Assembly (NCBI GenBank): GCA_018901615.1
Contig: JAHIEN010000083.1
Span: 1-42,910 of the forward strand
From: Candidatus Omnitrophota bacterium
Lineage (GTDB): Bacteria; Omnitrophota; Gorgyraeia; Gorgyraeales; Gorgyraeaceae
Length of the DNA: 42,910 nucleotides
Reading direction: 5' to 3'
The notes below the pieces were generated by a model. It did no database searches and had not been told where the DNA came from. It worked only from the letters and a program-made list of their open reading frames with translations. Made by a program: the position numbers and the translations under genes. How positions within the stretch are numbered: the first letter of the stretch is position 1; each line of letters starts with the position of its first letter. This document shows positions 3,344 through 39,387 of this stretch, one piece after another.

Positions 3344-3423
3344 AAATTCGAAACAAATCATAAATTAGAAATTCTAAATTCAAAACAGCAGGTTTAGAAT
3401 TTTAAATTTTGTGTTTCGAATTT
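3344..3423. repeat. AT-rich imperfect palindrome spanning the trpA stop codon
   Basis: The outer arms AAATTCGAAACA (3344-3355) and TGTTTCGAATTT (3412-3423) are perfect. The inner arms AAATTAGAAATTCTAAA and TTTAGAATTTTAAATTT match at about 15 of 17 positions. Related CGAAATCCGA/TCGGATTTCG units flank it at 3287-3296 and 3428-3437. Confidence 0.75.
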
Positions 3424-4235
3424 GTTTCGGATTTCGTGCTTCGGATTTTGGATTTAACAAGCGTCTTTACAAAACCCCCCACCTTCTTCACTAAATCCTT
3501 CTTTCCTATATTTTTCTCAATCACCTTCACAATCGCGCTGCCGACTATTACGCCATCAGCCGCCATGGATATTCGCGCTACCTGCTCAGCGCTTGAAATC
3601 CCAAACCCGACACAAACAGGTTTTCTTGTCATCTTTTTAATAAGGCGCAGGTTCTCGAATATCTCTTGAGGTAAAATTTCCCGCGCGCCTGTTGTTCCGG
3701 TAAGCGATACGTAATATATAAAGCCGGTCGAAGCTTCAGCTATCTTTTTAAGTCTTTCTTTGGAGCTTGTGGGAGCCGCAAGGTGCGCTATTGCGACGCC
3801 ATTCTTTCTGGCAACATCACGCAAAGGCCCTGATTCTTCAAATGGTAAATCAGGTATTACCGCACCGTCCACTCCCGAGGCCTTTGCCATTCTGGCGAAT
3901 CTTTCCAACCCATAATAATAAATCAGATTGTAGTATGTAAGAAAGACCACGGGCACCTGGGTCCTTGACCTTATCCTTTTTACCAGGTTAAAGACTGAGT
4001 CCAGATTTACTTTGTTTTTGAGCGCCCTCTGGCTTGAGCGCTGTATCGTGGGGCCGTCCGCAAGCGGGTCTGAGAAAGGCACGCCAAGTTCGATTATATC
4101 CGCGCCGCTTGTTTCTAACTCAAATATCAATTTTTCAGTAATGTCTATAGATGGGTCCCCCGCCATTATAAAGGCGATAAACGCCTTTTTGTTATTCTTC
4201 TTCAGTTCTTTGAATTTCAAATCTATGCGATTCAC
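3402..4235 (-). CDS. trpA: Tryptophan synthase alpha chain
   Basis: 277 aa with the motifs FIMAGDPS and [17 protein letters not shown]. It overlaps trpB by 4 nt. The last ~17 aa ([17 protein letters not shown]) are encoded by one arm of the palindromic repeat at 3344-3423. Confidence 0.95.
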
Positions 4236-5419
4236 CCTTGACCCTCCACCCTTGACCCTCTTATTATATCCATATCCTTATCGCCCCTGCCAGAGAGACA
4301 GACAATTATGATCTTATTCCTGTTTAATTTCGGCGCCAGTTTTTTTACCGCGTAATATATGGCGTGGCTTGGCTCCAGGGCAGGTATTATACCTTCTATT
4401 TCACTCAGCATCTTGAAGCCCTCAAGCGCTTCTTTGTCGCTGACAGCCACATATTTAGCCCGCCCTGTTTCCTTGTAATACGAATGCTCAGGACCTACGC
4501 CAGGATAATCCAGGCCAGCGGATATTGAATGAGCTATGTGTATCTGTCCGTCTTTGTCCTGCAGGAGATAGCTCTTACTACCATGCAATATCCCTGGTTT
4601 GCCCTTACATAGAGCAGCGCCATGCCTTTTTGTCGCAAGGCCTAATCCCCCTGCTTCTACCCCGATAAATTTAACATTTGATTTAAAGAAAGGGTGAAAA
4701 AGGCCTATTGAGTTGCTTCCTCCCCCTACGCATGCAACCAGGTAATCAGGAAGCGTTTTTTCGTATTTCAGGATTTGCGCCTTTGCCTCTTTGCCTATGA
4801 TAGATTGAAAATCTCTTACCATGGCAGGATAAGGGTGAGGGCCGACTGCGGAGCCAAGGACATAGTGTGTGGTGCGGACATTTGTGACCCAGTCTCTTAT
4901 TGCCTCATTTGTAGCGTCTTTAAGAGTCTTACTCCCGGAATAGACAGGGATAACCTTTGCGCCCAGGAGTTTCATCTTGAACACGTTGAGCGCCTGGCGT
5001 TCTATATCCTCAACCCCCATATACACTTCGCATGGCAGGTTAAATACAGCCGCGGCTGTTGCCGTGGCTACTCCATGTTGGCCCGCGCCTGTCTCAGCAA
5101 TAATGCGCGACTTGCCCATCTTGACTGCCAGGAGCAGCTGGCCGAGCGTATTATTTATCTTGTGGGCGCCGGTATGAAGCAGGTCTTCGCGCTTCAGGAA
5201 TATCTTTGCGCCAGCTTTTTTAGAAATATTCTTAGCAAAATATAAAGGGGTCGGCCTGCCAGCGTATGTCTTTAAAAGTTCGTACAGCTCGCGCTTAAAC
5301 TTCAGGTCTTTAATAGCCTTTTTGTACGCCTTTTCAAGCTCTTCAAGCGCCACCATAAGGGTCTCAGGCACAAACTTTCCGCCAAACCCGTTAAATCTGC
5401 CATCTTTATCAGGTAGCAT
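4232..5419 (-). CDS. trpB: Tryptophan synthase beta chain
   Basis: 395 aa with the PLP-lysine region [11 protein letters not shown] and the GGGSNSIG loop. SD AGGAG lies upstream of the ATG. Confidence 0.95.
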
Positions 5420-5445: not shown

Positions 5446-5474
5446 ATTATAGATGAAAAGGCGGGCTCTGTCAA
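5446..5474 (-). promoter_or_regulatory. Consensus sigma70-type promoter for trpBA
   Basis: The minus strand reads TTGACA (5474..5469), a 17-nt spacer, then TATAAT (5451..5446). It sits about 26 nt upstream of the trpB ATG, with AGGAG in between. Confidence 0.7.
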
Positions 5475-5482: not shown

Positions 5483-5528
5483 CCGCTGACTTTTACATTT
5501 AGCGGTGTCCTTATGTAAAAGTCAGCGG
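5483..5528 (-). terminator. Perfect 16-bp stem hairpin, probable terminator of the exported-protein operon
   Basis: CCGCTGACTTTTACAT (5483-5498) pairs with ATGTAAAAGTCAGCGG (5513-5528) across a 14-nt loop. On the transcript it is followed by TATTGTTGTT. It lies 27 nt after the stop at 5556 and just upstream of the trpBA promoter. Confidence 0.5.
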
Positions 5529-5555: not shown

Positions 5556-6545
5556 TTAAATATTTGCTACCAGGGCACGAGCTACTGCCGGAGTAAGGTT
5601 ATTTAGTGTATTACCCGTAGCTAATGCTGCCATATCCTCTATCTGGGCAAACATTTCCGAGTTTGGTATATAGGAAAATACAATGATTCTTTGCGTGAGC
5701 AGACGCTTTGCGGTTTCGTATTCCATAGGAAGACCTCTCAGGATAGACGAGACATATGCCTCGTCTTCTGGAGATACATTGCCTGCCTCATCAACTTTAA
5801 TATTGCGTGTGGTGGCTATTGCTAGATTGTTGCCACCTTCTCTTACGCCCTCCGTCTTCTCGGCTAGAAGTTCCGGATTTAAACTATCTGGCCCCATTAT
5901 CTGCCCCGCTGTAAGAACCTTTACTTTTGTATAGCTTTTTCCGTTGAGAGGATTATCTCTATCAGGTGTTTGGATAGTCTGCCCGCTCGCTAATACCTGA
6001 CCCGCTATCTGCCTCGCCATAACCTTTTCTTCGGAAGTTGTAGTTCTGCTTATATCGTAAGAGTCTAATCCTACGTTGCGCAGGCTGCTTATTTCCTTGT
6101 ACCGTTCGTTTATTTCTTGCATCTGGCCGCTATCCATAGAAACTATCACGCGGTAATTACCCGGTGATACGCGTTCGATAACCCCAACTATCGAAGACAA
6201 GTCATTTAATTCGTTGTATAACATTGTGCTGCTAATGGAATAATCGCTATTCCCTGTAACCTCTTTACCAAAAGCTATCCTCATTTCTTCAAATTCTTTA
6301 TATGTAAATTCAGCTCCCTCCTGAAACTTATTGTTCCGTATTAATGTAGCCCATGCATTAAAGGCAGACCTCTTTCCCCCTGGAATTTTCCCGTCTATCT
6401 CGCGTTTCACGTCATCCAGGTTATTTGCTCCGATCTTATCCCCTCTTAATTTCATCAACGGCGCGCTGGCATAACATGCCTGCGCCATTATAAAAATACA
6501 TGCTATCAAACTGAGCGCAAATACCACCTTTTGTCTTTTTTTCAT
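5556..6545 (-). CDS. Exported protein of unknown function (orphan)
   Basis: 329-aa ORF. The N-terminus MKKRQKVVFALSLIACIFIMAQACYASAP looks like a Sec signal peptide. It starts 21 nt downstream of the preceding gene. I recognise no domain. Confidence 0.75.
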   Translation of the reverse strand: MKKRQKVVFALSLIACIFIMAQACYASAPLMKLRGDKIGANNLDDVKREIDGKIPGGKRSAFNAWATLIRNNKFQEGAEFTYKEFEEMRIAFGKEVTGNSDYSISSTMLYNELNDLSSIVGVIERVSPGNYRVIVSMDSGQMQEINERYKEISSLRNVGLDSYDISRTTTSEEKVMARQIAGQVLASGQTIQTPDRDNPLNGKSYTKVKVLTAGQIMGPDSLNPELLAEKTEGVREGGNNLAIATTRNIKVDEAGNVSPEDEAYVSSILRGLPMEYETAKRLLTQRIIVFSYIPNSEMFAQIEDMAALATGNTLNNLTPAVARALVANI

Positions 6546-6566
6546 TTTGTTCTCCTCTTTTTTGTT

Positions 6567-8036
6567 TTATCTTATGAATGTTGCTCTATATAACGATTCG
6601 TCTGTTACTGTCGTAACTCTGGGACTCACTACAAGATATGAATACCCTTTATCCGCAAGAAGTTCTGTGAGGGCCGGGGCGTGAAAACCCCCTGCAATCA
6701 ATCCGGCTATATTCTCGTCATGGCCCTTTAATTCTTCATCAAGCCTGGTCACAAAGGCCGTGTCTCTTTTAAAAGCTACGCTATAAAACTTTTCTACAAC
6801 AGGGAGATTGTCGCTTATAACGTAGGCATTTTCAGGAACATCGGTGTCAAGCCTCAGTTCTTCTGATTTTTTTATTATAAAATCAGACCAGAGGAGAGGA
6901 TTGAAGTCTTTCTTGTTATCTATAAAATACTTGTACTCTTCAGGGACAACCTTTATCTCAAGAAGATTTTTCATTATTGACAGCGCCCTTGATATCCTTA
7001 CAAGCTGTTTCTGGTCAGGATTCGTTGCCAGGACGCCGATTAGAAAATCTTCCAGCTGGGGCTCTTCCTTAAAGAGCTCGTTTATGTTCAAATCTTTCAT
7101 TAATCTTGTATATTTGTCGTATGACTCCATTTCTTCATCTGTAGCATTGCCGGCGCTGATCGCGGCCATGTCTATCTCTTTCTCAAGTTCACCAATTTGT
7201 ATCAGATTGCTGAGATTCGGAAACACATATAAAGGCGCGTCATTTGCTTCGGATTTGGCATATAGATATTGATAGTAAGCCAGCAAATCTATATTACCGT
7301 CATCATAATCCTTCTTTTTATTACTCAGCTCGAGCAATTCTTCGGTGTAGATATGGGGTTTCAATGCTTCTGCCGCTGCCATCAGTCGACCCACATAATC
7401 AGCTCCAATATCCCTGATCTTATCTACTTCCCACAACATATTTTTCTGTTCTTCATAAAGCGCTTTTTCTTCTAAGCCATAAAAAGACAACGGGTACGTA
7501 GAAGTAAGCTCCAGGTACTCTTCGCCTGTTATTTCGGCGCTCTCAAGAAGATCTTCGGCTGCCTCTCTTCTTGCTTCATCTGAACCGTAATTTCTTAGAC
7601 TGTTCAGGTCCTTGTTCGTGCTCATTCCTTCTCTAAAAACCAACTCCAGTCCAGTGTCCTCGATTACTGATTCAAGTATGTACGCTAAGTTTCTCTGCGC
7701 TTCGTAATTCGCGTGCGCGTCCTGGATATACACGATGAGTTTTCCGTTAGATCCTTTATGTGTTTCGATTACTGTGCCGTATTGGTCCGGGATTGTGATA
7801 GATAATTGGTCTAATAAATCCAACTCTTCGATAGTTTCTTCTGTGTCTTCTCGGACCATTGCTTCTTCTTTTGCAAGCTCAGGGGTTTGTTTTGGCGCCT
7901 GTTTTTCTGCTTGAGGCCCTGCCCCTGCCTGTAAAGCCTTCTGTCGCCTTTCCCATATGGTTTCAGCGTAAGATAGGCTGATTCCAAGCGTAGAGACTAT
8001 AATCATAGCAGTTAAGATTCTAAATATTCTATTCAC
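6567..8036 (-). CDS. Exported protein, possible Tiki/TraB/GumN/ChaN-superfamily fold
   Basis: 489 aa with a signal peptide (MNRIFRILTAMIIVSTLGISLSYA/ET). An N-terminal block KLIVYIQDAHANYEAQRNLAYILESVIEDTGLELVFREGM and a C-terminal GLIAGGFHAPAL resemble the paired GxxH...E blocks of ChaN/Tiki-like proteins. CDS confidence is high. Confidence in the family call is about 0.35. Confidence 0.8.
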   Translation of the reverse strand: MNRIFRILTAMIIVSTLGISLSYAETIWERRQKALQAGAGPQAEKQAPKQTPELAKEEAMVREDTEETIEELDLLDQLSITIPDQYGTVIETHKGSNGKLIVYIQDAHANYEAQRNLAYILESVIEDTGLELVFREGMSTNKDLNSLRNYGSDEARREAAEDLLESAEITGEEYLELTSTYPLSFYGLEEKALYEEQKNMLWEVDKIRDIGADYVGRLMAAAEALKPHIYTEELLELSNKKKDYDDGNIDLLAYYQYLYAKSEANDAPLYVFPNLSNLIQIGELEKEIDMAAISAGNATDEEMESYDKYTRLMKDLNINELFKEEPQLEDFLIGVLATNPDQKQLVRISRALSIMKNLLEIKVVPEEYKYFIDNKKDFNPLLWSDFIIKKSEELRLDTDVPENAYVISDNLPVVEKFYSVAFKRDTAFVTRLDEELKGHDENIAGLIAGGFHAPALTELLADKGYSYLVVSPRVTTVTDESLYRATFIR

Positions 8037-8086
8037 GGGTTCATACGCCTCCTTAAGTTTAATAAATAGATTTTAAAACTATTAAT

Positions 8087-8115
8087 AGTATACCATCTCA
8101 GCCAAGCTACGTCAA
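8087..8115 (-). promoter_or_regulatory. Sigma70-type promoter with extended -10, upstream of the 489-aa exported protein gene
   Basis: The minus strand reads TTGACG (8115..8110), a 17-nt spacer ending in TGg, then TATACT (8092..8087). Confidence 0.6.
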
Positions 8116-8162
8116 GTTATTTTTGCATTCAAAGAATTCCTGTGAAAACCAGGCTGTGTTTA

Positions 8163-10079
8163 TTATAGTTTACTTCTGACTTGTGCATATCCGTTCAATA
8201 CCCTACCTGTATGCCGCGACTCAATCACAATACTCTCTACGCCGTTATTATCCATGGCTACTATGTTTCCGTCTGATACCTTAAGTGAAACAGTTTCTTT
8301 TAAAACATTGTCTATGAGAAAGTCCATATCTTTCGGCAACGCCTCTTTGCTGACATTGTCCTTCATATCCAAAAGAGTGCGTAGCCATATCAGGCTCTCT
8401 TCTTTTAAACCAAGTATACCCAATCTCTTTTCCCAAATCGAGCGTTGCGAGTCGCTAGCAGCGTTTATTAATTCTCTTACGGCAAAATCTCTCACGCTTC
8501 TATTTTTATCATCAAGAAACCCATAATCATTTTCTGCTTTTATACCAAGTTTTGTTAAAGAGATAGCGGACGATTCATATGTCGTAGTTGTCAAAAACCC
8601 TCTCCCGTAAGAATCTAAAATAAAAGCGCTTATTCTTATATGCTTATCGTCTATTATTTCCACGCCGGGTATAATAAAATCTGAAGATATATCTACATCC
8701 GGCCTTGCCCCAGTTACGGAAGAAGCAATAAAAATCCTTTCAGGGTACCCAGAAGCATCTTTTTCTGTTATTATCGCCTCTGGATTTTCGATGCCAAGTT
8801 CTTTAAAATCTCTTATGTCCTCAGGCGAATATCTATTCCAACCAGAAATATTTTTGCCATTAAGGTCCTTGGAAGAATGAACCATCCTGACCCTGGAAAT
8901 GCCATTACCATCCGCGTTAATCCTGCCAGCCCCTATCAGACCTGTGGCAAAGCCTTCAATCCCGCCGCTAGCTCCCAAAACAATCGTATATTTCTTTCCT
9001 TTATAAGTCGGCACTCCCAGAGGAGCCACGACTCTCACAAAAGCGTCTCCGTCAGGAACTGTAGAATACGTTATCTTGTTGCCTTTTGCCTGTAAATCCT
9101 TCATTGTATTTTCATTATATTCATGCCTAGTTCTTTCTAGAAAAACAATATGCGCTTCTTCGCCTAGCTGCTCAACGGTTACGCCGCGTTCATTCGCGAT
9201 ATTCTGCAGAATAACGTCTGGCTCAAGCAATGCCGGAGAAAACGGCTTTTTGCCCTCTTTTCCATATGGCATCCCAGGATAAGAAACTGATATCACATAA
9301 CGATCGTGGCAAAAAGGTATCTTATATTTTGCCAAGACCTTTCCTTTTATATACTCCAAATATTCCTGCAGCAGTTTTCCAGCCTTATAAGCATCTTTTC
9401 TTAGCAGGGTTTCAGATTTCGCATTAAGCTTTGTGAGAAAGAATAAAGACCATGCGCCTTTTTCGCTTACTGCTTGCGCATTTGTATTTTCTAGAGGGTC
9501 GGCATGAACAATATATAGGCCTTTCTTGCCGTTCGGATTTATAACTTGCTTTACTTTTAATGCAGGCGCACCATCCCGAGTTTTTCCCTCACTTCCCCCT
9601 ATAATAATCGCAATATCCAGATCTTTGGCAATATTCATTAACATTTTTTCCAGTATACTAACAGTTCCGCCATCCGCTATAGCTTTTTTTTCTTTCGCAT
9701 TTTTATATTCCTCTCCGGTAGCAGGATTAATAGCGTATCCTGCGTTAAAATATGCGCTAAGCGCCGCCATATTCGTAGTATGAAGCGATAAGGTAACGAC
9801 CTTATCTTTATACGGGCTGTCTAAATCATCATATTTTAAGCCGGAAATCTGGGTAAAAGAAGTATCAACAAGTTTAAGACCATATGAAGCTATTGCTTCG
9901 CTGGTGTTTTCCGGATTATAGGTTTTTCGGGCGAGTTCTAGCCTATCCTTGGATACCCCTAAGGGCAATCTTAAACTTGCTGATGTCTGAATATCCTGAG
10001 GATAAACTGCGCTTGTGGATATAAAAATAAATACGAGCAGAAATGATATAATTTTGTTTGCTGATTTGCCGGTAAGCAC
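8163..10079 (-). CDS. Exported GlpX-like (class II fructose-1,6-bisphosphatase fold) protein with N- and C-terminal extensions
   Basis: 638 aa with a GTG start preceded by AAAAGGAGAAA and an N-terminal hydrophobic signal/anchor (KIISFLLVFIFISTSAV). Blocks collinear with GlpX: IADGG (D136), IIGGSEGK (E164), HADPLEN (D193/E196), VPDGDA (D343/D345), LGASGGIEG (E375) and IFIASSVTG. CDS confidence is high. Confidence in the fold call is about 0.55. Confidence 0.8.
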   Translation of the reverse strand: MLTGKSANKIISFLLVFIFISTSAVYPQDIQTSASLRLPLGVSKDRLELARKTYNPENTSEAIASYGLKLVDTSFTQISGLKYDDLDSPYKDKVVTLSLHTTNMAALSAYFNAGYAINPATGEEYKNAKEKKAIADGGTVSILEKMLMNIAKDLDIAIIIGGSEGKTRDGAPALKVKQVINPNGKKGLYIVHADPLENTNAQAVSEKGAWSLFFLTKLNAKSETLLRKDAYKAGKLLQEYLEYIKGKVLAKYKIPFCHDRYVISVSYPGMPYGKEGKKPFSPALLEPDVILQNIANERGVTVEQLGEEAHIVFLERTRHEYNENTMKDLQAKGNKITYSTVPDGDAFVRVVAPLGVPTYKGKKYTIVLGASGGIEGFATGLIGAGRINADGNGISRVRMVHSSKDLNGKNISGWNRYSPEDIRDFKELGIENPEAIITEKDASGYPERIFIASSVTGARPDVDISSDFIIPGVEIIDDKHIRISAFILDSYGRGFLTTTTYESSAISLTKLGIKAENDYGFLDDKNRSVRDFAVRELINAASDSQRSIWEKRLGILGLKEESLIWLRTLLDMKDNVSKEALPKDMDFLIDNVLKETVSLKVSDGNIVAMDNNGVESIVIESRHTGRVLNGYAQVRSKL

Positions 10080-10116
10080 TTTCTCCTTTTAGTTTATCTT
10101 ATAAATCATTTATAAA

Positions 10117-10145
10117 AGTATATCACAATATAATCTTTTTGTCAA
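10117..10145 (-). promoter_or_regulatory. Sigma70-type promoter with extended -10, upstream of the GlpX-like gene
   Basis: The minus strand reads TTGACA (10145..10140), a 17-nt spacer ending in TGa, then TATACT (10122..10117). It lies about 37 nt upstream of the GTG start. Confidence 0.6.
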
Positions 10146-10181: not shown

Positions 10182-12140
10182 TTATTCAATGATTATGTCG
10201 CATTCAGGTATGGAACTCAAAAATGCCTTGCCATAAAACTTGTTTATTATGCGGCTGTCAAGGATCGCTATTATACCTGTATCGCTCTTGCTCCTTACCA
10301 GTCTGCCAACCCCCTGCTTGAACCTGAGCACTGCTTCCGGCAGGTTGTACTCAAGAAAGGCGTCCCCTCCTTTTTTCTGTATTTCTTCTGCGCGGGCCTC
10401 GATTACAGGGTGATCAGGGACAGCAAACGGCAGTTTTGTGATTATTACGTTAGACAAGGCTTCGCCCTGGACATCTATGCCCTGCCAGAAACTGTCTACG
10501 CCGAACAATATAGAGCCTTTTTCTTTTTTAAAACTTGAAAGCATCTTGCTTCTGCCAAGGCCGCTGCCTTGTTTCAATACATTAAAACCCTTGTCACTGA
10601 GAAATGATTCGAGTTCTTCATATACTATATTCATCAAAGCATAGCTCGTAAATAACACAAATGCCCTTCCGTTTGTAAGCTCTATGTATTTTTTTGTCTT
10701 TTCCGCGACTGCCGCGGCGTATTCAGTAAGCTGGCTCGGCAAAGGCATGTCTTTCGCTATATACATCCTGACCTGATTTTTGTAATCAAAGGGGGAGCCT
10801 AATTTTAATTCCTTTGCCTCGTCTATCCCCAGCCTTTTTCTTAAGTACTGGAATGAGTCGTTTCCCACGGAAAGCGTCGCACTTGTCAATATGACAGGCC
10901 TGCGCGTGGAAAAAACCCTTTCTTTGAGCAGGTTGCCTATGTTGATCGGGGCGGCATTGATCGAAATATTGCTATTGCGAAGCCGCCTTGAACACTCTAT
11001 CCAGTATACGCAATCCTCTATTGTCTGTTCGAGTATGATCTCAAGTGAATCTTTTAGCGCGTTGAGCTTCCTGATAAAAGACGAGATTTCAAGTTCTTCC
11101 TCTTTGTTTCTCGCTATTTTTTTGGCGTTCAGTAATGACTCAACCAGCTTGGAAAGCGGCGCTTCGAGGGAATTATCCACGAAACCAGCCTTCCTTATCC
11201 TCAATGAATCAACTTCTCCTCCGAGTTTTCTCCCTTCAAAATATTCCTTTATCTCTTTAAAAAAAGAGTCTGATCTTTTGCGTATCACCTCGACCCATTC
11301 CATAGGCTCCTGATCGCCCAGCGTCAACAAGAACCCTTTTTGCTTTTTCAGGTTAAACAAAAGGTCCATAAGGTATTTGATCCCTGAATTCGTTACGCTG
11401 GTGCCCATATGTTCCGTGGCAACATTCTCTATGCTGTGCGCCTCGTCAAAGACAAGGACGTCGCATTCAGGGAGGAGTTTTTTTTGCTCTTCCTGCATGG
11501 CAAGGTTTGAAAAAAAGAGGTGGTGGTTCACGACCAGGATCCTGGCTTCGCGTATTTTTTCCCTGGCCTTTTGAAAAAAACATTGCTTGTAATAAGGGCA
11601 TTTTTTCCCAAGACAGGACTCTGAGTCGACAGAGACCATATCCCACACCTTTGAATCAGGTTCCCCCTCCATGTCATAGAGCGAACCGTCTATTGTATTG
11701 TAAGACCACGTCATTATCATGGCGAACTGGCGCATCTCATATTCGTCGGCGAATAGGTCTTTTTGCTTCAAATTCGACCTGTTCAATCTCCTGAGGCATA
11801 GGTAATTGTGCCTGCCCTTTACAAGCAGGGCCTTAAAATCTATATCGAGCGCTTTTTCAAGAAAAGGGATATCTTTATGTACGATCTGTTCCTGGAGATT
11901 GATGGTATTGGTGGAGATGATCGCGACGCCTTCTGTCTCAAGCGCAAACCTGGCAACAGGGACCAGATAAGAAAAGCTTTTGCCGACCCCGGTACCTGCC
12001 TCGACTATGAGCGTATCTGAGTTCAGGATGGCCTTCCCGACTGCCATGGCCATTGAGACCTGTTCGTCTCTTGTCTCGTAGTCTGGCATGGCCCTGGCTA
12101 CAGGACCGTCTTTATCAAAAACACTATCTATATAATCCAT
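10182..12140 (-). CDS. dinG: ATP-dependent DNA helicase, DinG/XPD (Rad3-like) family
   Basis: 652 aa with Walker A AGTGVGKS and the DEAH box VFDEAHSIEN. Four cysteines (CLRRL ... CLGKKCPYYKQC) are positioned like the Fe-S domain of XPD/DinG helicases. Confidence 0.9.
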   Translation of the reverse strand: MDYIDSVFDKDGPVARAMPDYETRDEQVSMAMAVGKAILNSDTLIVEAGTGVGKSFSYLVPVARFALETEGVAIISTNTINLQEQIVHKDIPFLEKALDIDFKALLVKGRHNYLCLRRLNRSNLKQKDLFADEYEMRQFAMIMTWSYNTIDGSLYDMEGEPDSKVWDMVSVDSESCLGKKCPYYKQCFFQKAREKIREARILVVNHHLFFSNLAMQEEQKKLLPECDVLVFDEAHSIENVATEHMGTSVTNSGIKYLMDLLFNLKKQKGFLLTLGDQEPMEWVEVIRKRSDSFFKEIKEYFEGRKLGGEVDSLRIRKAGFVDNSLEAPLSKLVESLLNAKKIARNKEEELEISSFIRKLNALKDSLEIILEQTIEDCVYWIECSRRLRNSNISINAAPINIGNLLKERVFSTRRPVILTSATLSVGNDSFQYLRKRLGIDEAKELKLGSPFDYKNQVRMYIAKDMPLPSQLTEYAAAVAEKTKKYIELTNGRAFVLFTSYALMNIVYEELESFLSDKGFNVLKQGSGLGRSKMLSSFKKEKGSILFGVDSFWQGIDVQGEALSNVIITKLPFAVPDHPVIEARAEEIQKKGGDAFLEYNLPEAVLRFKQGVGRLVRSKSDTGIIAILDSRIINKFYGKAFLSSIPECDIIIE

Positions 12141-14756: not shown

Positions 14757-16094
14757 CTATTTCCATACCTCTTTTAAATATTTCGGTATTCCTGACGCCT
14801 CTTTAGGGCCTACCATTACGTTCCATCCAGACGCGTCCTCGAGTTTGCCGCTTAAGACAGATACATAGCCTGGTATGATTATCTTTTTGTGAGATACCAC
14901 ATTTTCCAGTTCAAGTTTTTTCATTGTATCAGCTATGATCTCCGGCGTAAATTTTTCAGCTGCCCATGCTGTTAAAACGCTCATGCCTTCTGAATCCGTC
15001 ACAAGAAGATATGCCGGCATTTTACTCGCCTCTATCTCAGGAGAGACCGTATAGAACGTAAGGGAAAAATTAGTCGTGACCATAACCGGGGAATTTTTAT
15101 CAACAGCGCCAAAGGGATAGAGTTTTGGCTCAACAGTCACGGGTTTTTGCGGGTCTGTGTAGATATTCTGGCGCAGCGTCACGATCGGCAGTAAGACCTC
15201 TTTATCAAGAGAGTCCAGCACGATAAGGCCCGCATACTTTGCAATGCATACGCTCGCGTCCTGCACTATTCTGTATTTATCATCACTATTAATAAAGGAA
15301 ATGATGGGGTACCCAAGCGGCCTGTAATTTTTCTTTAGACTTGCCCTTCTTATCTGTGTAAAATCGTTTAACGCCTGATTCAATGTCTCTGGCAGAGGAT
15401 CAAGCACCAGCCCTTCCGCGCCCAGGGACATTGCTTCCTGACTTAGTTTGTCAAGTTCATCCAGGCCTTTTGCCTTTATGGCCATAGGCGCCTTATAATC
15501 CTTTGACAGTCTGCACATGTCTTTAAGATTAGAGCCGCTGGCAGCGTATATCAGCGGCCTCCTGTCAGCGCATTTTTTTAAAGCCTCTTCTATTGTCTTT
15601 GCGTCATCGCTCGCGAGTATTATAGCCTTTTTTGAATTTGCGATTATCTTATCAAGGGCCGCGATAAATTTTTCAGAAGTCCCGCTTTTATTGACAATGG
15701 CTATCATGTCAATGGTTATATGCTGGCCAACGCGCTCAAAACTCATCTCCTCTATGTCTTTGACGCGCTGGTCCATGTCAGCGGCTGGCAGTATATCGTC
15801 CACGCTTAAGGCTATCGCTGTCTGATGATAAAATGTCTTTTCATGCCTGAAGAGGACTGTCTCTCCCCCCACTACCACTTCATTGTCCCCGGAACCAATG
15901 GATATGGCCGCTATCGGAGGCCTGGCCGCCTGATCCAATGCCTTTTTCGCTTCCTCTGTCACGTCAGGGCATTGATCCAGGGACGCCTTTTTCATCGCCA
16001 GTTTCATGGCAAAAGTAAGGCAGGTTGGAGAACCGCATTTTTTACAGTTGGTCTTCGGTAATAATTTGTATATATCTAAGCCAGATAGCGCCAT
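14757..16094 (-). CDS. acsC: Corrinoid iron-sulfur protein large subunit (AcsC/CdhE type)
   Basis: 445 aa. The N-terminal [4Fe-4S] motif CKKCGSPTCLTFAMKLAMKKASLDQCP and the length match AcsC. A strong SD (AAGGAGATAAA) precedes the ATG. Confidence 0.92.
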   Translation of the reverse strand: MALSGLDIYKLLPKTNCKKCGSPTCLTFAMKLAMKKASLDQCPDVTEEAKKALDQAARPPIAAISIGSGDNEVVVGGETVLFRHEKTFYHQTAIALSVDDILPAADMDQRVKDIEEMSFERVGQHITIDMIAIVNKSGTSEKFIAALDKIIANSKKAIILASDDAKTIEEALKKCADRRPLIYAASGSNLKDMCRLSKDYKAPMAIKAKGLDELDKLSQEAMSLGAEGLVLDPLPETLNQALNDFTQIRRASLKKNYRPLGYPIISFINSDDKYRIVQDASVCIAKYAGLIVLDSLDKEVLLPIVTLRQNIYTDPQKPVTVEPKLYPFGAVDKNSPVMVTTNFSLTFYTVSPEIEASKMPAYLLVTDSEGMSVLTAWAAEKFTPEIIADTMKKLELENVVSHKKIIIPGYVSVLSGKLEDASGWNVMVGPKEASGIPKYLKEVWK

Positions 16095-16239
16095 TTTATC
16101 TCCTTAATGAGCACTTGACTTACGGAACGAGCGAAGCGAGTAAACGTAAGTCAATGTGCGAATTAACCCCCACACCAATTGGGAGGTATAAGTTTCTTTC
16201 CAACCAATTGGTGTGGGGGTAAGTTCGGGGTGTCCTCAC
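16095..16239 (-). repeat. Structured intergenic element, copy 1 (acsB-acsC spacer)
   Basis: The minus strand has a perfect 16-bp hairpin: CCCCCACACCAATTGG at 16167-16182 pairs with 16204-16219. Next come GGTGTGGGGGTTAATTCGCAC, a second hairpin (TTGACTTACG/CGTAAGTCAA) and the terminus GTGCTCATTAA. The SD and acsC ATG follow immediately. Confidence 0.75.
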
Positions 16240-18417
16240 TTACATAATTGCTTCCATCATCAACGCGGGATGTCCGACCTTTTCCAGATAGGGCATAAGT
16301 TCTTCCACTGTGGTCGCCACTGTCTCATCAGCTATCTTGTTCAAAAGATCCAGCTCTCCTAATTCTTCGCTCCTCTTTTTTATTTTATCCGAAAGCGCTT
16401 CTTTTAATTCTTTTGGCATCCATACAATCCTTTTTAGACCGCCTTCCGCGGATATGAATTTCTTGCTTGTAATATAAAGCCGCCCGACGCCCATGAACCC
16501 TGGTGTTTGCTGCCCTCCTCCTATCGTACCTGCAAGCGTTGAGAAGCCTATGCCGACAGGTGTCATGCCGGGATATTCCCTGTTGACTACTATAAAGCCG
16601 TTTACCTCCGGCAATATAGCTACTATACACTCAAAGCAGCCGCAACTCGTCTCTGGCGAATCTATTATAGAATAGCCGCAGAATCTTTCGATAGTCCTGT
16701 TTGATTTCTGGGCTACCGCCTCATTTACGCCGATCCACTCGCCTTTTACAGCGTCAAGACATTGGCCTTTTTTAACAGGCTGGTTCGGCCCTGAAGGGTT
16801 AAGCTCATTGGATGCCTTTGCGTCAAGCCAGTTATAGGCACCGCACAACCCTATCCTTTCAGGTTTTATTATACAGACGTGGTTAGGCGCGAAGCTCTGA
16901 CACAGCGTGCATGTCCAGAATAAGTCTACGCTGTCATCTGTCATGCCTAAAACCCTGATATCCCGCTCTTCATAAGACTTTTGAGCGTCCTTGATCTCCC
17001 TTCCAACGTCTTCCTGTTTTGTATATATCGTGACCTGGACCTTGTCAGCAATCGCGTTGAAGACATCATGAATCCTGGCGTGCAATATAACTCCAAAATG
17101 TTTTAACTTGAACTTTTTATTTTTTGCGTCTTTTGATATCCTTATCCAGCACATATCCCTCTGGCCCATGTGAAAAACACCCATTGCCTCGTTCAGAAAA
17201 CTATGTATCTGTCTTTCGAGGATAGGCTCAAAGTCTTTCTGCATCTTTCTGCCTGCTACCTGCACAACGATTCCAAGGGGCAAGGCGTCGCCTTCTTTGA
17301 TCTCATCCAGCTCTGGGCCTATTACCTCTATCTTTCCATCCTCTATCTTGTCCAGCTCTGTCATTTTTACATATTCAAAGGCATCTGAATATTTGCCTCC
17401 AAACTGCGCGTACATCTGTTCCCGCCTGACCCGTTCTCCTTCAAACGCGGGCGAGTACGACACAGGTATAGGGATTTCAGTGATCTTTAGCTTTATCCCT
17501 CTTACCTCTACAGCCACGGGAACTATCTTTTTATGGTCCAGCTCTTTTACAACATGTTCATACGTGCAAATCCCGCTCGGTCTTATCTCAGGTATATCTG
17601 TATCGGCTATAATCGGAAATCCCATGTTTATCGCGCCTGCGCCTGTAGCGTATTTTATATCATCCAGATCACCAAGCGTCATGCCGAACGCGTATACCCT
17701 GTTTAGACAATATTTTAGACACTTCAACGCCTCGCCTTTTTTATGACCACCGAACGTCAATGCGCCGCGGATAGCCCAGTTTAAAGGGTATATAGCGCTC
17801 AATGTATCCCTGCCATAGGGTACTATATAGGTATCCCACCCCATTTCTACTTTTTCTTCCATGAGCTGGTCGATTATGCTGCGGCCCTTGACATTGCTGC
17901 CTACAAAGGTCATGATACTGCGCTTCTGAAGCTCGCGCACAATATACACAGCTGTTTTATTGTCAGGCGCGGCTCCGAGAATCGCGGCAAATCCAGGCAT
18001 CCTGCCATCCACGAGCTGGATACCGAGCGTGCGCAATATAGTGTCTGAAAAAAATCCATTGCAGTCTTTCTGCGGTTCCTGGCCGTATAGATATCTGAGA
18101 GCCATTATTATCTCTTCACACAATAAAGCCGCCACGCCTGAGTCAAGGGTATTGCCGAGATATGGCAGCCAGATTTTTTCCTCAGGTTCATCATGAAGAA
18201 GCGTCCTGGAAAACAGCAGGACATCCTTTGCCTCAGACAGATTCTTTACCTCTTTACCCAGAAGCGCGTAAGCCAGCGGGAAATAAAATGCCGTGTCTGG
18301 AAATCTTACCTCGCACTGCTCACCTTTTTCTTTAATGGCCTTGCCTAGAAACTCTTCTGCCTGGCGATATATCTCTTTAGCCCCTCTTATGGCAGCTGAT
18401 GCAATTATCTTTGACAT
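16240..18417 (-). CDS. acsB: Acetyl-CoA synthase catalytic subunit (CO-methylating; AcsB)
   Basis: 725 aa with the A-cluster region CTLCQSFAPNHVCII...GLCGAYNW and SCGCFECIV. SD GGAGGGTGT precedes the ATG. Confidence 0.95.
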   Translation of the reverse strand: MSKIIASAAIRGAKEIYRQAEEFLGKAIKEKGEQCEVRFPDTAFYFPLAYALLGKEVKNLSEAKDVLLFSRTLLHDEPEEKIWLPYLGNTLDSGVAALLCEEIIMALRYLYGQEPQKDCNGFFSDTILRTLGIQLVDGRMPGFAAILGAAPDNKTAVYIVRELQKRSIMTFVGSNVKGRSIIDQLMEEKVEMGWDTYIVPYGRDTLSAIYPLNWAIRGALTFGGHKKGEALKCLKYCLNRVYAFGMTLGDLDDIKYATGAGAINMGFPIIADTDIPEIRPSGICTYEHVVKELDHKKIVPVAVEVRGIKLKITEIPIPVSYSPAFEGERVRREQMYAQFGGKYSDAFEYVKMTELDKIEDGKIEVIGPELDEIKEGDALPLGIVVQVAGRKMQKDFEPILERQIHSFLNEAMGVFHMGQRDMCWIRISKDAKNKKFKLKHFGVILHARIHDVFNAIADKVQVTIYTKQEDVGREIKDAQKSYEERDIRVLGMTDDSVDLFWTCTLCQSFAPNHVCIIKPERIGLCGAYNWLDAKASNELNPSGPNQPVKKGQCLDAVKGEWIGVNEAVAQKSNRTIERFCGYSIIDSPETSCGCFECIVAILPEVNGFIVVNREYPGMTPVGIGFSTLAGTIGGGQQTPGFMGVGRLYITSKKFISAEGGLKRIVWMPKELKEALSDKIKKRSEELGELDLLNKIADETVATTVEELMPYLEKVGHPALMMEAIM

Positions 18418-18439
18418 ACACCCTCCATCCGATTTCAGC

Positions 18440-19729
18440 TTAAGCGGTCATGATTGTCTCTGTAAATTCTTTTTGTTTAAAGGCGCCCTTTGAATCCTTT
18501 ATTATATTTACAATCTTGCCATAATCAAAATAATCCTCGAGAACAATGTCCTCCGCGTCTTTTATATTAACCTTGTTTTTTATAAGGGCTCCGATGACAC
18601 CTATCTGTTCGATCGCATTTACAAAAACAGCCCCTACTATTATATTATCGCGCAGCACTATCTTCTTATAGACGTTTTTATCTAGATTTTTTCTGACTAT
18701 TTCTTTATAGATATCCTTTTTAGGCCTTGTTATGCCTATTGATATCACCGGCAAGCCGAAGAATTCTATGGAATTCATGGCCAGGGTCCCGTCGTATACC
18801 TGATTTTCCCCTGACATATTAAGTCCCGCGGCCCTTCCCTGCTCACACGCAACAGGCCATATCGCGTTTATGGTCTTTTCTTCCAGGGCTATGTCATAAG
18901 ATTCTGACACATCGCCGGCGGCAAAGATATTGTCATCGCTGGTTTTTAAAAATTGGTCTACGACAATACCCCAGTTAGTCTTGATGCCGGCCTCTTTCGC
19001 TGTTTCAATATTAGGGCTGACTCCTTTTCCCACAACAACGAGTTGACAGTCAATATTTGAACCATTATCCAGCACCAGGCCTTCTACAGAGTCCTTTCCC
19101 TTTATCTCTTTCGCGGATCTTCCCGTAAATATCTTAATCCCTTTTTTCTCTATGTGCCGCTGCATTATGCCGGCGGATTCCTTGTCTATTATCTGGGAGA
19201 GTATCTGGGGCGAACGCACAAAAACAGATACGTCTTTGCCTCTGCTTTTCAAGGCATAAGCCGCTCTGAGCCCTATAAGCCCGCCGCCCAATACAGCCAC
19301 GCTTTTAACTTTGTCCAGCACAGACTGGATCTCGACAGCGTGCCCAAGGGTCCTGAGAGGGAAAACTCTCTTTTTATCCTTGCCCGGAATATCTTCAAGC
19401 TTTGGGGAAGAGCCCGTGGCAATAAGCAACCTGTCAAATCTTATTTTTTCTCTGTTCTCAAGGCGCACCTCTTTGCTTTCAGTGTCTATTTTTTCTGCCC
19501 TTACCCCGAGTATTGCCTCTACCTTGTTTTTCTTAAAGAAGTTGTCAGGCCTGATCCAGATCTTATCTTTGTCAATAGTGCCTGCCAGGAGATATGAAAT
19601 CAGGCAGCGAGAATAAAGGGGGGTTTTTTCGTCAGATATAACTGTTATGGCAGCCTCTTTATCTTTTGATCTTATGGCCTCGACTGCGCTTATCCCCGCG
19701 GCGCTCGAACCTATTATCGCGTATCGCAT
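18440..19729 (-). CDS. FAD-dependent pyridine-nucleotide-disulfide-family oxidoreductase (CODH-associated type)
   Basis: 429 aa with two dinucleotide-binding folds (IIGSSAAGISA and VLGGGLIGLRAA) and AAGDV. It sits directly downstream of a CooF-like ferredoxin gene. Confidence 0.88.
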   Translation of the reverse strand: MRYAIIGSSAAGISAVEAIRSKDKEAAITVISDEKTPLYSRCLISYLLAGTIDKDKIWIRPDNFFKKNKVEAILGVRAEKIDTESKEVRLENREKIRFDRLLIATGSSPKLEDIPGKDKKRVFPLRTLGHAVEIQSVLDKVKSVAVLGGGLIGLRAAYALKSRGKDVSVFVRSPQILSQIIDKESAGIMQRHIEKKGIKIFTGRSAKEIKGKDSVEGLVLDNGSNIDCQLVVVGKGVSPNIETAKEAGIKTNWGIVVDQFLKTSDDNIFAAGDVSESYDIALEEKTINAIWPVACEQGRAAGLNMSGENQVYDGTLAMNSIEFFGLPVISIGITRPKKDIYKEIVRKNLDKNVYKKIVLRDNIIVGAVFVNAIEQIGVIGALIKNKVNIKDAEDIVLEDYFDYGKIVNIIKDSKGAFKQKEFTETIMTA

Positions 19730-19733
19730 GCCT

Positions 19734-20213
19734 TCAAGTCCTCACTTTAAATTCCTCTAATGTTCCTAAAAACAGCGCTTTTGTATGACACGCCTCAACG
19801 CAAGCAGGCCTGCCTGCCGGCAAGGCAAGCACGTCTCTGTCAGGACAGAGGTCGCATTTTACAATCACCTTTTCCTGCCTCTCTCTTGTAAGCGCGCCAA
19901 AAGGACAGCTCATTATACACATCCAGCAGCCAATGCATTTATCTGCATCATGCATGGTCTGTCCTGTCTTTTTATCCTTATACATCGCGGCTGACATGCA
20001 TGCTGTTACGCATGCCGCATCCTCGCAATGATGACAGCCTGTTGAAATCGCCCTGCCCTTATCGATAAATTGAGCCTTGCGCCTTTTTATCGGGAGTAGT
20101 TCTTCTTTTATGGCAATATCAAGAGTCTTGGATCTCGAATGCTCCACAGCGCACGCAATCTCGCAAGACCCGCACCCTAAACATTTTTTAATGTCACAGT
20201 ATATCTTTTTCAT
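19734..20213 (-). CDS. cooF: CooF-like 4Fe-4S ferredoxin
   Basis: 159 aa with four Cys clusters: CLGCGSCEIAC, CHHCEDAACVTAC, CIGCWMCIMSCP and CDLCPDR...CVEAC. No SD is visible. The ATG directly abuts the repeat terminus GTGCTCATTAA. Confidence 0.9.
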   Translation of the reverse strand: MKKIYCDIKKCLGCGSCEIACAVEHSRSKTLDIAIKEELLPIKRRKAQFIDKGRAISTGCHHCEDAACVTACMSAAMYKDKKTGQTMHDADKCIGCWMCIMSCPFGALTRERQEKVIVKCDLCPDRDVLALPAGRPACVEACHTKALFLGTLEEFKVRT

Positions 20214-20392
20214 TTAATGAGCACTTAAGTTACGAAAAATCTCTGATTTTTTGTAACTTAATCTTCTCTGTTTAACTTCTCTGAAGGTGCGAATTAATCC
20301 CACACCTTTTTAATATTCATCTACTTAAGAAATGGACAAATTCTTAAGATTATGAATAAACAGAAGGTGCGGGACAAATTCGGCCTTATAAG
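20214..20392 (-). repeat. Structured intergenic element, copy 2 (cooS-cooF spacer)
   Basis: Same architecture and conserved blocks as copy 1: CCGAATTTGTCCCGCACC ... GGTGTGGGATTAATTCGCAC ... a long hairpin ... AAGTGCTCATTAA. The cooF ATG follows directly. Confidence 0.75.
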
Positions 20393-22321: not shown

Positions 22322-23054
22322 TCAATACCTCCTCTGATGCTCTTGCCAGATCTTTCGAAAACTTTGAATCCTCGGGCAGGATCCCCCTGGAACTCAAAAG
22401 TGATTCATCCAGTTTTATAAAGCCCGCTATCCTCAGCCCCTTTAGATTTTCCTCAATAAAAATCCTGTCGCCTTCAGACCTTATCTTGTTGGCTATAACC
22501 AAAACCTCTTTGATCTTTAAATTTTCCGCAAGGCCTTTTATCCTGGCCGCTGTGTCAATAGAGGTCTTGTTGGGTTCGATTACTATTATAAACTTTTCAA
22601 CTGACTGAGCAGTGCCACGGCCCAGATGCTCGACGCCTGCCTCCATGTCGACTATCACGACCTCATCCCTGTTTATAAAGATGTGGCTCAATAGGGCCTT
22701 TAAAAAGGCGTTTTCAGGACACACGCAGCCAGAGCCGCCTTTTTTTACAGTGCCCATCTCAAGCAGCCTGATATTGCCACGCTCTTTTGAAAATCTATCA
22801 GGTATATCGTCGACCTTTGGATTTAATTTAAAAAACGCGCCGAGTTCTCCTGTGCGCTCCAGGATTATTTTTTTTAACTCTGATATTGGCGTTGGCCTTT
22901 CTGTGTCTGAAAAACCAAGCGCGGTGCCAAGATTGGCGTCGGGATCAGCGTCTATCGCTATCACCTTCTTACCCTGTCCGCTAAATATACAGGCAAGGCC
23001 TGCCGCAATAGATGTCTTTCCTGCCCCGCCTTTTCCCGTAACCGCTATCTTCAT
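22302..23054 (-). CDS. cooC: CODH/ACS nickel-insertion accessory ATPase (CooC/AcsF)
   Basis: 250 aa with the deviant Walker A GKGGAGKTS and the CXC metal motif GGSGCVCPEN. Confidence 0.92.
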   Translation of the reverse strand: MKIAVTGKGGAGKTSIAAGLACIFSGQGKKVIAIDADPDANLGTALGFSDTERPTPISELKKIILERTGELGAFFKLNPKVDDIPDRFSKERGNIRLLEMGTVKKGGSGCVCPENAFLKALLSHIFINRDEVVIVDMEAGVEHLGRGTAQSVEKFIIVIEPNKTSIDTAARIKGLAENLKIKEVLVIANKIRSEGDRIFIEENLKGLRIAGFIKLDESLLSSRGILPEDSKFSKDLARASEEVLNVKTNR

Positions 23055-23068
23055 GATATCACAGATTT

Positions 23069-23935: not shown

Positions 23936-23962
23936 TTTAGTTTCCTTAAGGTTCTCATCCTG

Positions 23963-24189: not shown

Positions 24190-24210
24190 CACGAAGTAAA
24201 AGACCTATAT

Positions 24211-24399: not shown

Positions 24400-24426
24400 C
24401 TGTACCAGCTCAAAGAACAACACGCT

Positions 24427-25889: not shown

Positions 25890-25929
25890 GGTTTTCCGAG
25901 TTTTTCCGCGTAACGTTCCGCGATTCTTA

Positions 25930-39328: not shown

Positions 39329-39348
39329 TAATGACTCCATTTTTCACA

Positions 39349-39377: not shown

Positions 39378-39387
39378 GAAAAATCTG

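Follow-up and report, generated by a model that had tools for sequence, protein, structure and literature searches.

Giant proteins of the bacterial phylum Omnitrophota are the closest described relatives of the locus analyzed here. West-Roberts et al. (2023, bioRxiv 10.1101/2023.11.21.568195) reported giant Omnitrophota proteins named 'Archaeovorins' that contain TIM, GPI, FBPase, PGM/PMM and FBP aldolase domains in a region predicted to be extracellular, and whose N-terminal regions are generally without identifiable domains. The same authors cautioned that the localisation they predict would be reversed if a transmembrane helix had escaped notice. A 2026 preprint described 'multi-enzyme metabolic clusters' in giant signal-peptide/transmembrane proteins (bioRxiv 10.64898/2026.06.07.730766). 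We analyzed a contig of 42,910 nucleotides (nt) from a Candidatus Omnitrophota bacterium (JAHIEN010000083.1, the whole of which is hereafter called the window), in which three minus-strand genes, named A, B and C, lie between dinG and trpBA and encode proteins with signal-peptide-type N-termini. Comparison with related genomes leads us to propose, with moderate confidence, that this module is a compact, split member of an Omnitrophota-wide, predicted Sec-exported system in which a domain of ~450 amino acids (aa), the B domain, adjoins or heads proteins carrying sugar-phosphate or glycolytic enzyme domains.

The module and the giant proteins share the phylum, the signal peptide, and sugar-phosphate/glycolytic domains predicted to lie outside the cytoplasm. 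Furthermore, the module has domains homologous to those of large proteins of the phylum, as Omnitrophota proteins of 785 to 6,205 aa begin with the B domain and some of them include an A-type domain as well. Whereas the giant proteins are single polypeptides of at least 10 kaa (thousand amino acids), the module consists of three separate genes of 329-638 aa at a conserved housekeeping locus, and the annotated parts of the window yielded no genes for type II/IV secretion, pili or PilZ. Neither preprint mentions erythromycin esterase, TraB or Tiki. Given this silence and the description of the N-termini as domain-free, the B family and the rule that it accompanies enzyme cargo are not described in them. 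Therefore, extracellular glycolytic domains in giant Omnitrophota proteins were already known and, as far as the literature was searched, the B family, its systematic pairing with enzyme-domain proteins and the small split operon are new. The dinG-trpBA locus was also checked as a candidate for one of the hypervariable regions of the 2026 preprint, in which trpB and dinG are unmentioned.

The module is composed of the following genes.

8163-10079, minus strand: gene A, 638 aa, GTG start, AGGAG-type ribosome-binding site
6567-8036, minus strand: gene B, 489 aa, GTG start, AGGAG-type ribosome-binding site
5556-6545, minus strand: gene C, 329 aa, ATG start, AGGAG-type ribosome-binding site

C lies downstream of B after a gap of 21 nt. 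The start codons of all three genes are supported by their homologues, which have the same kind of N-terminus. An earlier sequence-only reading of the window had proposed these three genes with their sizes and the 21-nt gap, Sec-type signal peptides on all three products, two near-consensus promoters, a closing perfect 16-bp hairpin, a composition richer in AT than the surroundings and a contrast with housekeeping flanks; each of these points was borne out by the analyses reported below. Its statement that none of the genes matches a standard annotation holds at curated thresholds, as no Pfam or NCBIfam model matched A, B or C at threshold and a sequence search of the PDB gave no match for any of them, but does not hold for A at the profile level, where a relationship to GlpX is demonstrable.

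B belongs to a large, unnamed family confined almost entirely to one phylum. A word-index search with B retrieved 124 relatives, none of which has a precomputed Pfam domain, and a pattern scan of one genome per species confirmed at least 574 B loci. The homologues are named Candidatus Omnitrophota or Omnitrophica almost without exception. We observed that B is linked to sugar-phosphate enzyme domains by three independent kinds of evidence, namely adjacency, repeated enzyme-B cassettes and fusion. In distant clades, a stand-alone B lies directly 5' of large signal-peptide proteins; among the subset of B partners that were scanned for domains, the following were found after a stand-alone B.

PFK-GAPDH-PGK protein, 2,500 aa
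PGK-GAPDH-TIM-enolase protein, 2,026 aa
TIM-GAPDH protein, 1,673 aa
PGK protein, 793 aa
FBPase_3 protein, 1,030 aa
DeoC aldolase protein, 1,310 aa
GlpX protein, 1,189 aa, alone in this list in that its N-terminus, as called, is not hydrophobic
Protein with PPDK_N, 2,695 aa

A few other neighbours of B are probably unrelated to it, among them a histidine kinase and GlmS-like proteins of 609 aa that lack a signal peptide.

Cassettes were found in the loci fetched from related genomes (L numbers). The order dinG-[A slot]-B-C-trpBA is conserved in these sister loci, and within the close clade no locus lacks the B-C pair, whose two genes are separated by -51 to +43 nt. The position occupied by A in the window is variable, as follows.

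A slot of the window: A
A slot of L001 and, truncated, of L011: 1,065-aa GlpX + class II aldolase protein
A slot of L005 and L014: 1,115-aa PFK protein, then an extra B; L005 adds an 852-aa FBPase_3 protein
A slot of L003, L008, L010 and L015: empty

Every protein encoded in the A slot has a signal-peptide-type N-terminus. Enzyme genes are thereby paired with B as PFK-B and FBPase_3-B cassettes in L005 and as a GlpX+aldolase-B cassette in L001. The recurrence of the full three-gene module, which the sequence-only reading had named as a check, was thus found in part: the B-C pair recurs throughout the close clade, but the A slot is empty in four loci and holds a different protein in L001, L005 and L014.

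In fused forms, the B domain occupies approximately residues 45-520. The host proteins measure 785 to more than 3,800 aa, and many of them are truncated by the end of the locus. The scanned B-fused proteins contain PGM domains I-III, CofD and HEAT repeats, and a census of the wider set adds PGI, GH94 and NTP_transferase. Natural B-A fusions also exist (P0142; P0144, 5,831 aa; P0148, 6,205 aa; and fragment P0128). The cargo domains themselves score strongly against enzyme models, with 336 bits for FBPase_3 and 371 bits for PGK. Taken together, gene order and domain architecture show that B is genetically linked to predicted sugar-phosphate enzyme proteins across the phylum.

Two further observations concern the B loci of the close clade. 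Tandem enzyme-B cassettes precede C at L005:423-10433 and L014:6458-11331 (PFK, 1,115 aa, + B, 480 aa; FBPase_3, 852 aa, + B, 493 aa), and such a pair of signal-peptide-bearing PFK and FBPase would set up a futile cycle, provided that the two enzymes were active in one place. The metagenome-assembled genome (MAG) JAHIPS01 (isolate KR13_S3.mb.80; L011-L014) contains four close-clade B-family genes on four contigs; these may be true paralogues, or the bin may mix several strains.

Gene A encodes a divergent relative of GlpX, the class II fructose-1,6-bisphosphatase known from E. coli (PDB 1NI9/3D1R; PF03320). Behind the signal peptide, the protein comprises an N-terminal region of ~100 aa, a GlpX-like core with an insertion of ~70 aa, and a C-terminal helical extension of ~140 aa.

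8601..9689, minus strand: GlpX-like catalytic core of A (~aa 131-493), supported by hhalign and conserved residues

Alignment of the A family, represented by seven sequences, with E. coli GlpX using hhalign gave a probability of 97.1% (E = 7.5e-11) over 286 columns covering GlpX residues 28-313. A profile hidden Markov model built from four A sequences matched PDB 1NI9 (E. coli GlpX) with E = 0.0017. Residues D136, E164, D169, D194, E197, T199, R316, R318, D343, D345 and E375 of A are invariant in the seven family members and align, in this order, to GlpX D33, E57, D61, D85, E88, T90, K164, R166, D186, D188 and E213, with E164 pairing with E57 by HMMER and with E59 by hhalign. We take the metal-binding and catalytic positions of GlpX to be D33, E57, D61, E62, D85, E88, T90, R166, D186, D188 and E213, with numbering checked against the alignment; 10 of these 11 positions are conserved in the A family, the exception being E62, which is replaced by a glycine (G170). 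A is thus similar to GlpX in fold and key residues and differs from this cytoplasmic, single-domain protein of ~336 aa in its signal peptide, its 638-aa length, its insertion and extensions, and the E62 substitution.

The divergence of A is extreme, as it gave no match to PF03320 (FBPase_glpX) even at E ≤ 1, whereas several relatives exceed the gathering threshold of this model (cutoff 27 bits), namely P0002 (27.6 bits), L001 (36), L024 (41.2) and P0129 (47.7). A single-sequence phmmer search with A against 1.84 billion representative proteins returned only 28 relatives at E ≤ 0.001, most of them long (up to 6,205 aa), and canonical GlpX was absent among them. The N-terminus of A is shared by relatives P0002 and P0127. 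Furthermore, close relatives of A are fused to other carbon-metabolism domains, including PPDK (P0127), a NagB-like domain (P0128) and class II aldolase (P0129, L001). Therefore, A is demonstrably a very divergent relative of the GlpX-type (class II) fructose-1,6-bisphosphatases, with largely intact metal-binding and catalytic residues and a predicted phosphatase activity.

Fusions of GlpX-like and class II FBP-aldolase-like domains within one predicted exported protein were found at L001:4718-7915, in P0129 and at L011:24-1580; they represent an aldolase/phosphatase pair built on folds other than those of the known bifunctional FBPase_3 enzyme. The window is matched by contigs of the Omnitrophota MAG GCA_018899115.1, an assembly of the same organism. 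In this MAG (JAHIIR010000021.1; L089:2250-2330), a 1-nt indel relative to window position ~8310 shifts the frame of the A C-terminus and yields 588 instead of 638 aa. This indel is probably a MAG assembly error, since two other assemblies match the window.

In the product of gene B, the signal peptide is followed by a short conserved helix (ETIWEKRQKA), then by an acidic linker that is disordered, and finally by an alpha/beta core that is split by an all-helical insertion of ~250 aa.

6570..7805, minus strand: B domain proper (aa 78-489), with invariant D106-A-H108, E136 and GGFH452

The invariant core of the family alignment comprises IQDAHxNYEAQ, EG, several Tyr and Arg residues, and GGFH, and the D-x-H/E/H set is invariant across 38 sequences down to ~30% identity. 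The AlphaFold (AF2) model of B has a predicted local distance difference test score (pLDDT) of 83.7 and a predicted template-modelling score (pTM) of 0.74. When compared to the PDB using Foldseek, this model gave weak matches, of which EreC (6xcq, 6xcs) and Bcr135 (3b55) came first and HopBA1 and ChaN were within the top 30. All four of these proteins belong to the TIKI/Ere superfamily (PMC6254334), which includes EreB/EreC, Bcr135, ChaN, TraB/PrgY/GumN, Tiki, RRSP of MARTX toxins and HopBA1. The signature of this superfamily is a set of 2His/2Glu at strand ends, exemplified by E3900-x-H3902, E3930 and H4030 in RRSP and by H85/E113 in Bcr135 (PMC6254334). A pattern of this type is present in B, where D106-A-H108, E136 and H452 each directly follow a strand that is predicted in the model to be a beta strand. 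The spacing of 28 residues from H108 to E136 is the same as that of Bcr135 H85/E113 and RRSP H3902/E3930, and the second His follows the third strand within a GxxH motif, as in the superfamily. In contrast to TIKI/Ere proteins, B has Asp in place of the first Glu, a first motif of QDAH rather than GxxH, and a far larger (~250 aa) helical insertion. Pfam searches with 38 B members gave weak matches in three of them (TraB_PrgY_gumN; Cofac_haem_bdg, Tiki superfamily, ChaN), with a best E of 0.0026. From the modelled fold and the disposition of these residues, B is probably a TIKI/erythromycin-esterase-like hydrolase, an assignment that is not established.

A helical segment of B, ARREAAEDLLESAEITGEEYLELTS (residues ~150-180, window ~7497-7589), has weak SHOCT_2 matches in 6 of 38 full-length and 4 of 15 core-only members, and the same region weakly matches phycobilisome-linker repeat proteins in the PDB (E = 0.005). 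The segment corresponds to a short 'AE.LL..G.IT.EEY' motif.

Gene C encodes a small and variable partner that combines a shared N-terminal domain with a conserved C-terminal alpha/beta region. Only two full-length relatives of C were detectable. An iterative search within the fetched loci revealed that the N-terminal ~170 residues of C recur in most of the small proteins found at the equivalent position of sister loci. The GlpX-type protein P0003 carries this region N-terminally as well (at residues 48-200), and the FBPase_3 protein of L005 is matched at its N-terminus by residues 1-88 of the C profile. In the AlphaFold model, residues 61-133 follow an H-b-H-H-b-b order that fits a winged helix, and the only high-probability local Foldseek matches of C are winged-helix domains (Rok, Cdt1, cullin WHB, DpnI and ORC/Cdc6), suggesting that C carries a probable winged-helix domain.

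6141..6368, minus strand: probable winged-helix domain of C (~aa 60-135), from a low-confidence model and local Foldseek matches

The three proteins share a predicted route out of the cytoplasm. Signal peptides were called using a heuristic of our own that looks for a basic n-region, a hydrophobic core of ~10-20 aa and small residues at -3/-1, and that requires the rest of the protein to be free of transmembrane segments. By this heuristic, A (MLTGKSANK…SAV↓), B (MNRIFR…SYA↓E) and C (MKKRQK…CYA↓S) each display a basic n-region, an uncharged hydrophobic core and an AxA-like site, that is, the sequence features of a Sec-dependent cleaved signal peptide, and no second hydrophobic segment was found in any of the three. 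The N-termini are matched in relatives: the n-region is net positive in 34 of 35 B proteins and in all 25 partners, the uncharged core has a median length of 15-17 residues, and an AxA-like site is present in all 35 B proteins and in 21 of the 25 partners. Additional hydrophobic segments are few or absent. According to the positive-inside rule, the N-terminus is cytoplasmic and the bulk of the protein lies outside in 59 of 60 proteins tested, so that the bulk would be outside the cytoplasm even if the segment remained uncleaved. Furthermore, the h-region varies in sequence across the B alignment whereas the residues located right after the cleavage site are conserved, indicating that the N-termini of B proteins behave as signal peptides rather than anchors. 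A signal peptidase I gene is located nearby on the same contig. These features show that A, B and C carry signal-peptide-type N-termini predicted to place the proteins outside the cytoplasm.

An LR(x)P motif was observed 3-20 residues past the predicted cleavage site of enzyme-bearing partners. In A, it reads SLRLPLG (residues 34-40, window 9961-9981). LRxP follows the signal peptide in 9 of 40 partners vs 6 of 132 other signal-peptide proteins (p = 0.0015, in a post hoc comparison of proteins that are not independent).

LRxP carriers besides A: P0002, P0127, P0128, P0129, P0130, L001:4718-7915, L005:423-3770, L019, L023, L031, L039 and L073

In the fusion fragment P0128, LRxP stands right after the B domain. 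A role of the motif as a universal B-cargo junction or processing site was rejected, as it occurs in 3 of 52 B-fused proteins, which is background. LRxP may be a sorting or processing signal specific to the window's clade.

Strong predicted transcription signals frame the module.

10117..10145, minus strand: promoter-like site for A, TTGACA, 17 nt, TGnTATACT; 11/12 matches plus the extended -10 TG
8087..8115, minus strand: promoter-like site for B-C, TTGACG, 17 nt, TGnTATACT
5483..5528, minus strand: terminator-like hairpin closing the module, perfect 16-bp stem, 13-nt loop, U-rich tail

Promoter-like sites are not enriched over the whole region (18 observed vs 11.8 +/- 3.6 expected). Both sites recur in sister loci. 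The B promoter is kept in all 15 close-clade locus entries, which correspond to about 11 distinct loci after merging duplicate captures, with 10-12 of 12 matches at 27-55 nt 5' of the B start and frequently with the extended -10 TG. This conservation was observed despite the B proteins of the close clade being only ~50% identical. Near-consensus sites equivalent to the A promoter are located upstream of the A-type genes in L001, L005 and L014. The hairpin has a folding energy of -25.9 kcal/mol (z = -5.05), and none of 200 shuffled sequences was as stable. Hairpins of -23 to -30 kcal/mol, mostly followed by a U-run, were found after C in 9 of 9 sister loci with enough downstream sequence. The comparison thus shows B-C to have its own conserved strong predicted promoter, from which it would be transcribed up to a conserved predicted terminator.

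A mini-ORF of four codons (ATG AAC CCG TGA; window 8033-8044, minus strand) begins 3 nt past an AAGGAGG ribosome-binding site, and its stop codon shares nucleotides with the B start codon (GTGA), so that the mini-ORF may be a leader or may couple its translation to that of B. Just past the module terminator, a perfect TTGACA/17/TATAAT consensus is located at window 5446-5474 on the minus strand, directly 5' of trpB.

Genes of known function flank the module on both sides.

10182-12140: dinG, flank of the module on the A side
4232-5419 and 3402-4235: trpB and trpA, flank of the module on the C side

Pfam analysis of the annotated parts of the remaining window found housekeeping and Wood-Ljungdahl genes, the latter at window 14757-27642 (CdhD-like protein, ACS/CODH, CooS-type Prismane protein, CooC, MTHFR, FolD and FTHFS), and from this gene content the organism looks capable of acetogenic/autotrophic carbon metabolism. 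The GC content is 0.409 in the module vs 0.451 across the rest of the window, where only 5 of 192 equal-size windows are lower, and the GC content at third codon positions of A is 0.35 compared with 0.41-0.53 in six neighbouring genes (0.48-0.53 in five of them and 0.41 in plsY). A mobile island was rejected as the cause of the low GC, since synteny is kept across species and neither tRNA genes nor meaningful direct repeats flanking the module were found. Six-frame searches of the window using hidden Markov models detected a single B, a single A and no further copies. Elsewhere in the window, at 38276-40962, a gene for a 524-aa BNR/Sortilin-type beta-propeller protein adjoins that of a 354-aa TPR protein, between polA and a methyltransferase gene.

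If the module is a compact, split member of the phylum-wide system, A would, once exported, be a metal-dependent phosphatase of sugar bisphosphates, working in the periplasm or on the cell surface. The phosphosugars that it acts on would be of external origin and could stem, for instance, from host or prey cells that are lysed or attached. B would be a hydrolase of the TIKI/erythromycin-esterase type and the accessory subunit shared by the exported enzymes, which it would process, mature or dock in cis when fused to them and in trans in the window module. C could be an adaptor or a further cargo, acting through its winged-helix-like N-terminal domain, which is also fused to a GlpX-type enzyme in another genome.

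Several observations weigh against this reading. Because PFK, PGK and GAPDH need ATP or NAD, catalysis outside the cytoplasm is chemically difficult to reconcile with the whole system, although a phosphatase such as A poses no such difficulty. ATP and NAD are not expected in a normal periplasm. Exported kinases and dehydrogenases could plausibly obtain these cofactors only in some unconventional compartment, or if they were next to or within a host cell that is lysed or attached. Furthermore, an organism that encodes the Wood-Ljungdahl pathway needs a gluconeogenic FBPase somewhere, and the whereabouts of this enzyme therefore matter to the reading of A. Cooperation of A with B is not obligatory, as A is absent from the locus in several genomes. 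For B, the Foldseek scores are weak: the best E is ~0.06 with a TM-score of 0.22-0.26, and superfamily matches range over E ~0.06-1.4 and TM 0.12-0.26. Attempts to prove its membership in the TIKI/Ere superfamily at the sequence level failed, as a PDB profile search with the full family gave no match, a core-only alignment from which the helical insertion had been removed retrieved no TIKI family from Pfam or the PDB, and hhalign against E. coli YbaP (TraB family) gave a probability of 0.1-0.2%; B thus has no significant sequence or profile similarity to the superfamily. The AlphaFold model of C, built from three sequences, is poor (pLDDT 53). Finally, gene calls in the fetched loci are crude longest-ORF (open reading frame) calls, which limits the context data.

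The functional claims of the sequence-only reading consequently survive in a modified form. Of its two members with hydrolase-type folds, A has the fold of a GlpX-type metal-dependent phosphatase, normally cytoplasmic, but B is only probably TIKI/Ere-like. The new extracytoplasmic system that it suggested corresponds to a neighbourhood of predicted exported proteins that is experimentally uncharacterised but not wholly new, as two preprints report such domains in giant proteins. As for its extent, the neighbourhood is real, but the module is a small, split relative of those giant proteins, and the B family, which is found throughout the phylum next to glycolytic-domain proteins or fused to them, gives the system a far larger scope than the window alone could reveal.

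A more far-reaching version, which we consider unlikely, is that the Omnitrophota run part of their sugar-phosphate metabolism (glycolysis/gluconeogenesis) outside the cytoplasm, whether in a periplasm of an unusual kind or in contact with or within a host or prey cell. B would then be a TIKI-like hydrolase not recognised before, acting as the dedicated head or maturation factor of the exported enzymes, and the dinG-trpBA module would be the minimal split form.

A rival explanation has the enzyme domains facing the cytoplasm. According to this explanation, the N-terminal segments would be uncleaved anchors that tether a cytoplasmic metabolism to the membrane, A would be the gluconeogenic FBPase of the cell, and B would be the scaffold of a membrane-associated glycolytic/gluconeogenic metabolon. 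The cargo domains are all classic cytoplasmic enzymes needing ATP, NAD or phosphosugars, a Wood-Ljungdahl organism needs an FBPase, the module lies among housekeeping genes and has strong predicted promoters, and West-Roberts et al. themselves raised the caution about an overlooked transmembrane helix (10.1101/2023.11.21.568195). However, the positive-inside rule puts the bulk outside in all but one of the 60 proteins, the short cores (median 15-17) and near-universal AxA sites are as for cleaved signal peptides, and A, B and C lack a second transmembrane segment. Furthermore, A is extremely divergent, with no canonical GlpX among its 28 relatives, unlike a housekeeping enzyme under conserved selection, and it is missing from the same locus in related genomes. 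We therefore regard tethering as improbable.

ATP and NAD would be available inside a victim cell. The proteins could be prey- or host-directed effectors, secreted and delivered into or onto another cell, in which B is a TIKI-type protease toxin, like RRSP in MARTX toxins, and the enzyme domains rewire or drain the carbon metabolism of the victim, for example through an ATP-wasting cycle of PFK and FBPase. The preprint literature infers the Omnitrophota to be host-dependent or predatory and proposes giant proteins as extracellular effectors, TIKI-fold domains act as effectors in MARTX toxins, PMT and HopBA1 (PMC6254334), and superfamily members also occur as modules of giant secreted toxins (PMC6254334). 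In L005, genes for a PFK protein and for an FBPase_3 protein occur together, and both have a B gene as partner. MARTX toxins, used here as a working analogy only, are likewise very large secreted polypeptides that string together enzymatic modules, including a TIKI-fold module, and are processed into pieces. In contrast to MARTX toxins, where the TIKI-fold module is an internal effector, B is N-terminal, its cargo consists of central-metabolism enzymes rather than known toxins, and RTX repeats, a cysteine protease domain (CPD) and type I secretion genes were not seen. The annotated parts of the window contain no secretion-system, pilus or PilZ genes, unlike the neighbourhoods of giant genes, there is no evidence of translocation domains, the Wood-Ljungdahl genes suggest an autonomous life, and a fixed chromosomal place among housekeeping genes is atypical of effector loci. 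An effector function thus seems about as improbable as tethering.

The exported domains might not be catalysts at all. In that case, the GlpX-like and B domains would have been recruited as phosphosugar- or glycan-binding modules or as envelope scaffolds devoid of activity, consistent with the great divergence of A, its large insertions and extensions, and the glycine replacing the catalytic E62 of GlpX. Non-enzymatic members are known in the TIKI superfamily, such as the haem-binding ChaN and the C1/C2 domains of PMT without catalytic motif (PMC6254334). However, the other 10 of the 11 GlpX catalytic and metal-binding positions are invariant in the A family, and the D-x-H/E/H set of B is invariant in all 38 sequences compared, which indicates selection on the active site; in addition, the cargo domains of sister loci score highly against enzyme models (PGK, 371 bits; FBPase_3, 336 bits). 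A purely structural or binding role is thus quite doubtful. That A, B and C are simply three unrelated secreted proteins gathered by chance in a variable, AT-rich intergenic slot would suit the changing A slot, the poor conservation of C proteins and the low GC, but is very improbable and largely refuted by synteny and fusions, as B-C adjacency is kept with its promoter and terminator in every close-clade locus, B-A fusions exist, enzyme-B pairing recurs in unrelated contexts, and no tRNA genes or flanking repeats mark a mobile island.

The Omnitrophota are abundant, mostly uncultured nanobacteria, and their giant signal-peptide proteins packed with central-metabolism domains are an open puzzle. 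Whereas these giant proteins are too large to express or model, the dinG-trpBA module holds the same ingredients as separate, tractable proteins of 329-638 aa with defined promoter-like sites. The B family has a conserved candidate active site, is not covered by Pfam or NCBIfam and is present at least 574 times in species-representative genomes; it provides a search handle for the whole system, and annotates the 'domain-free' N-termini of many large Omnitrophota proteins, having been seen in proteins of up to 6,205 aa. Furthermore, when glycolysis is scored as present in a member of this phylum by KEGG-style annotation, exported fusion proteins may account for part of the score.

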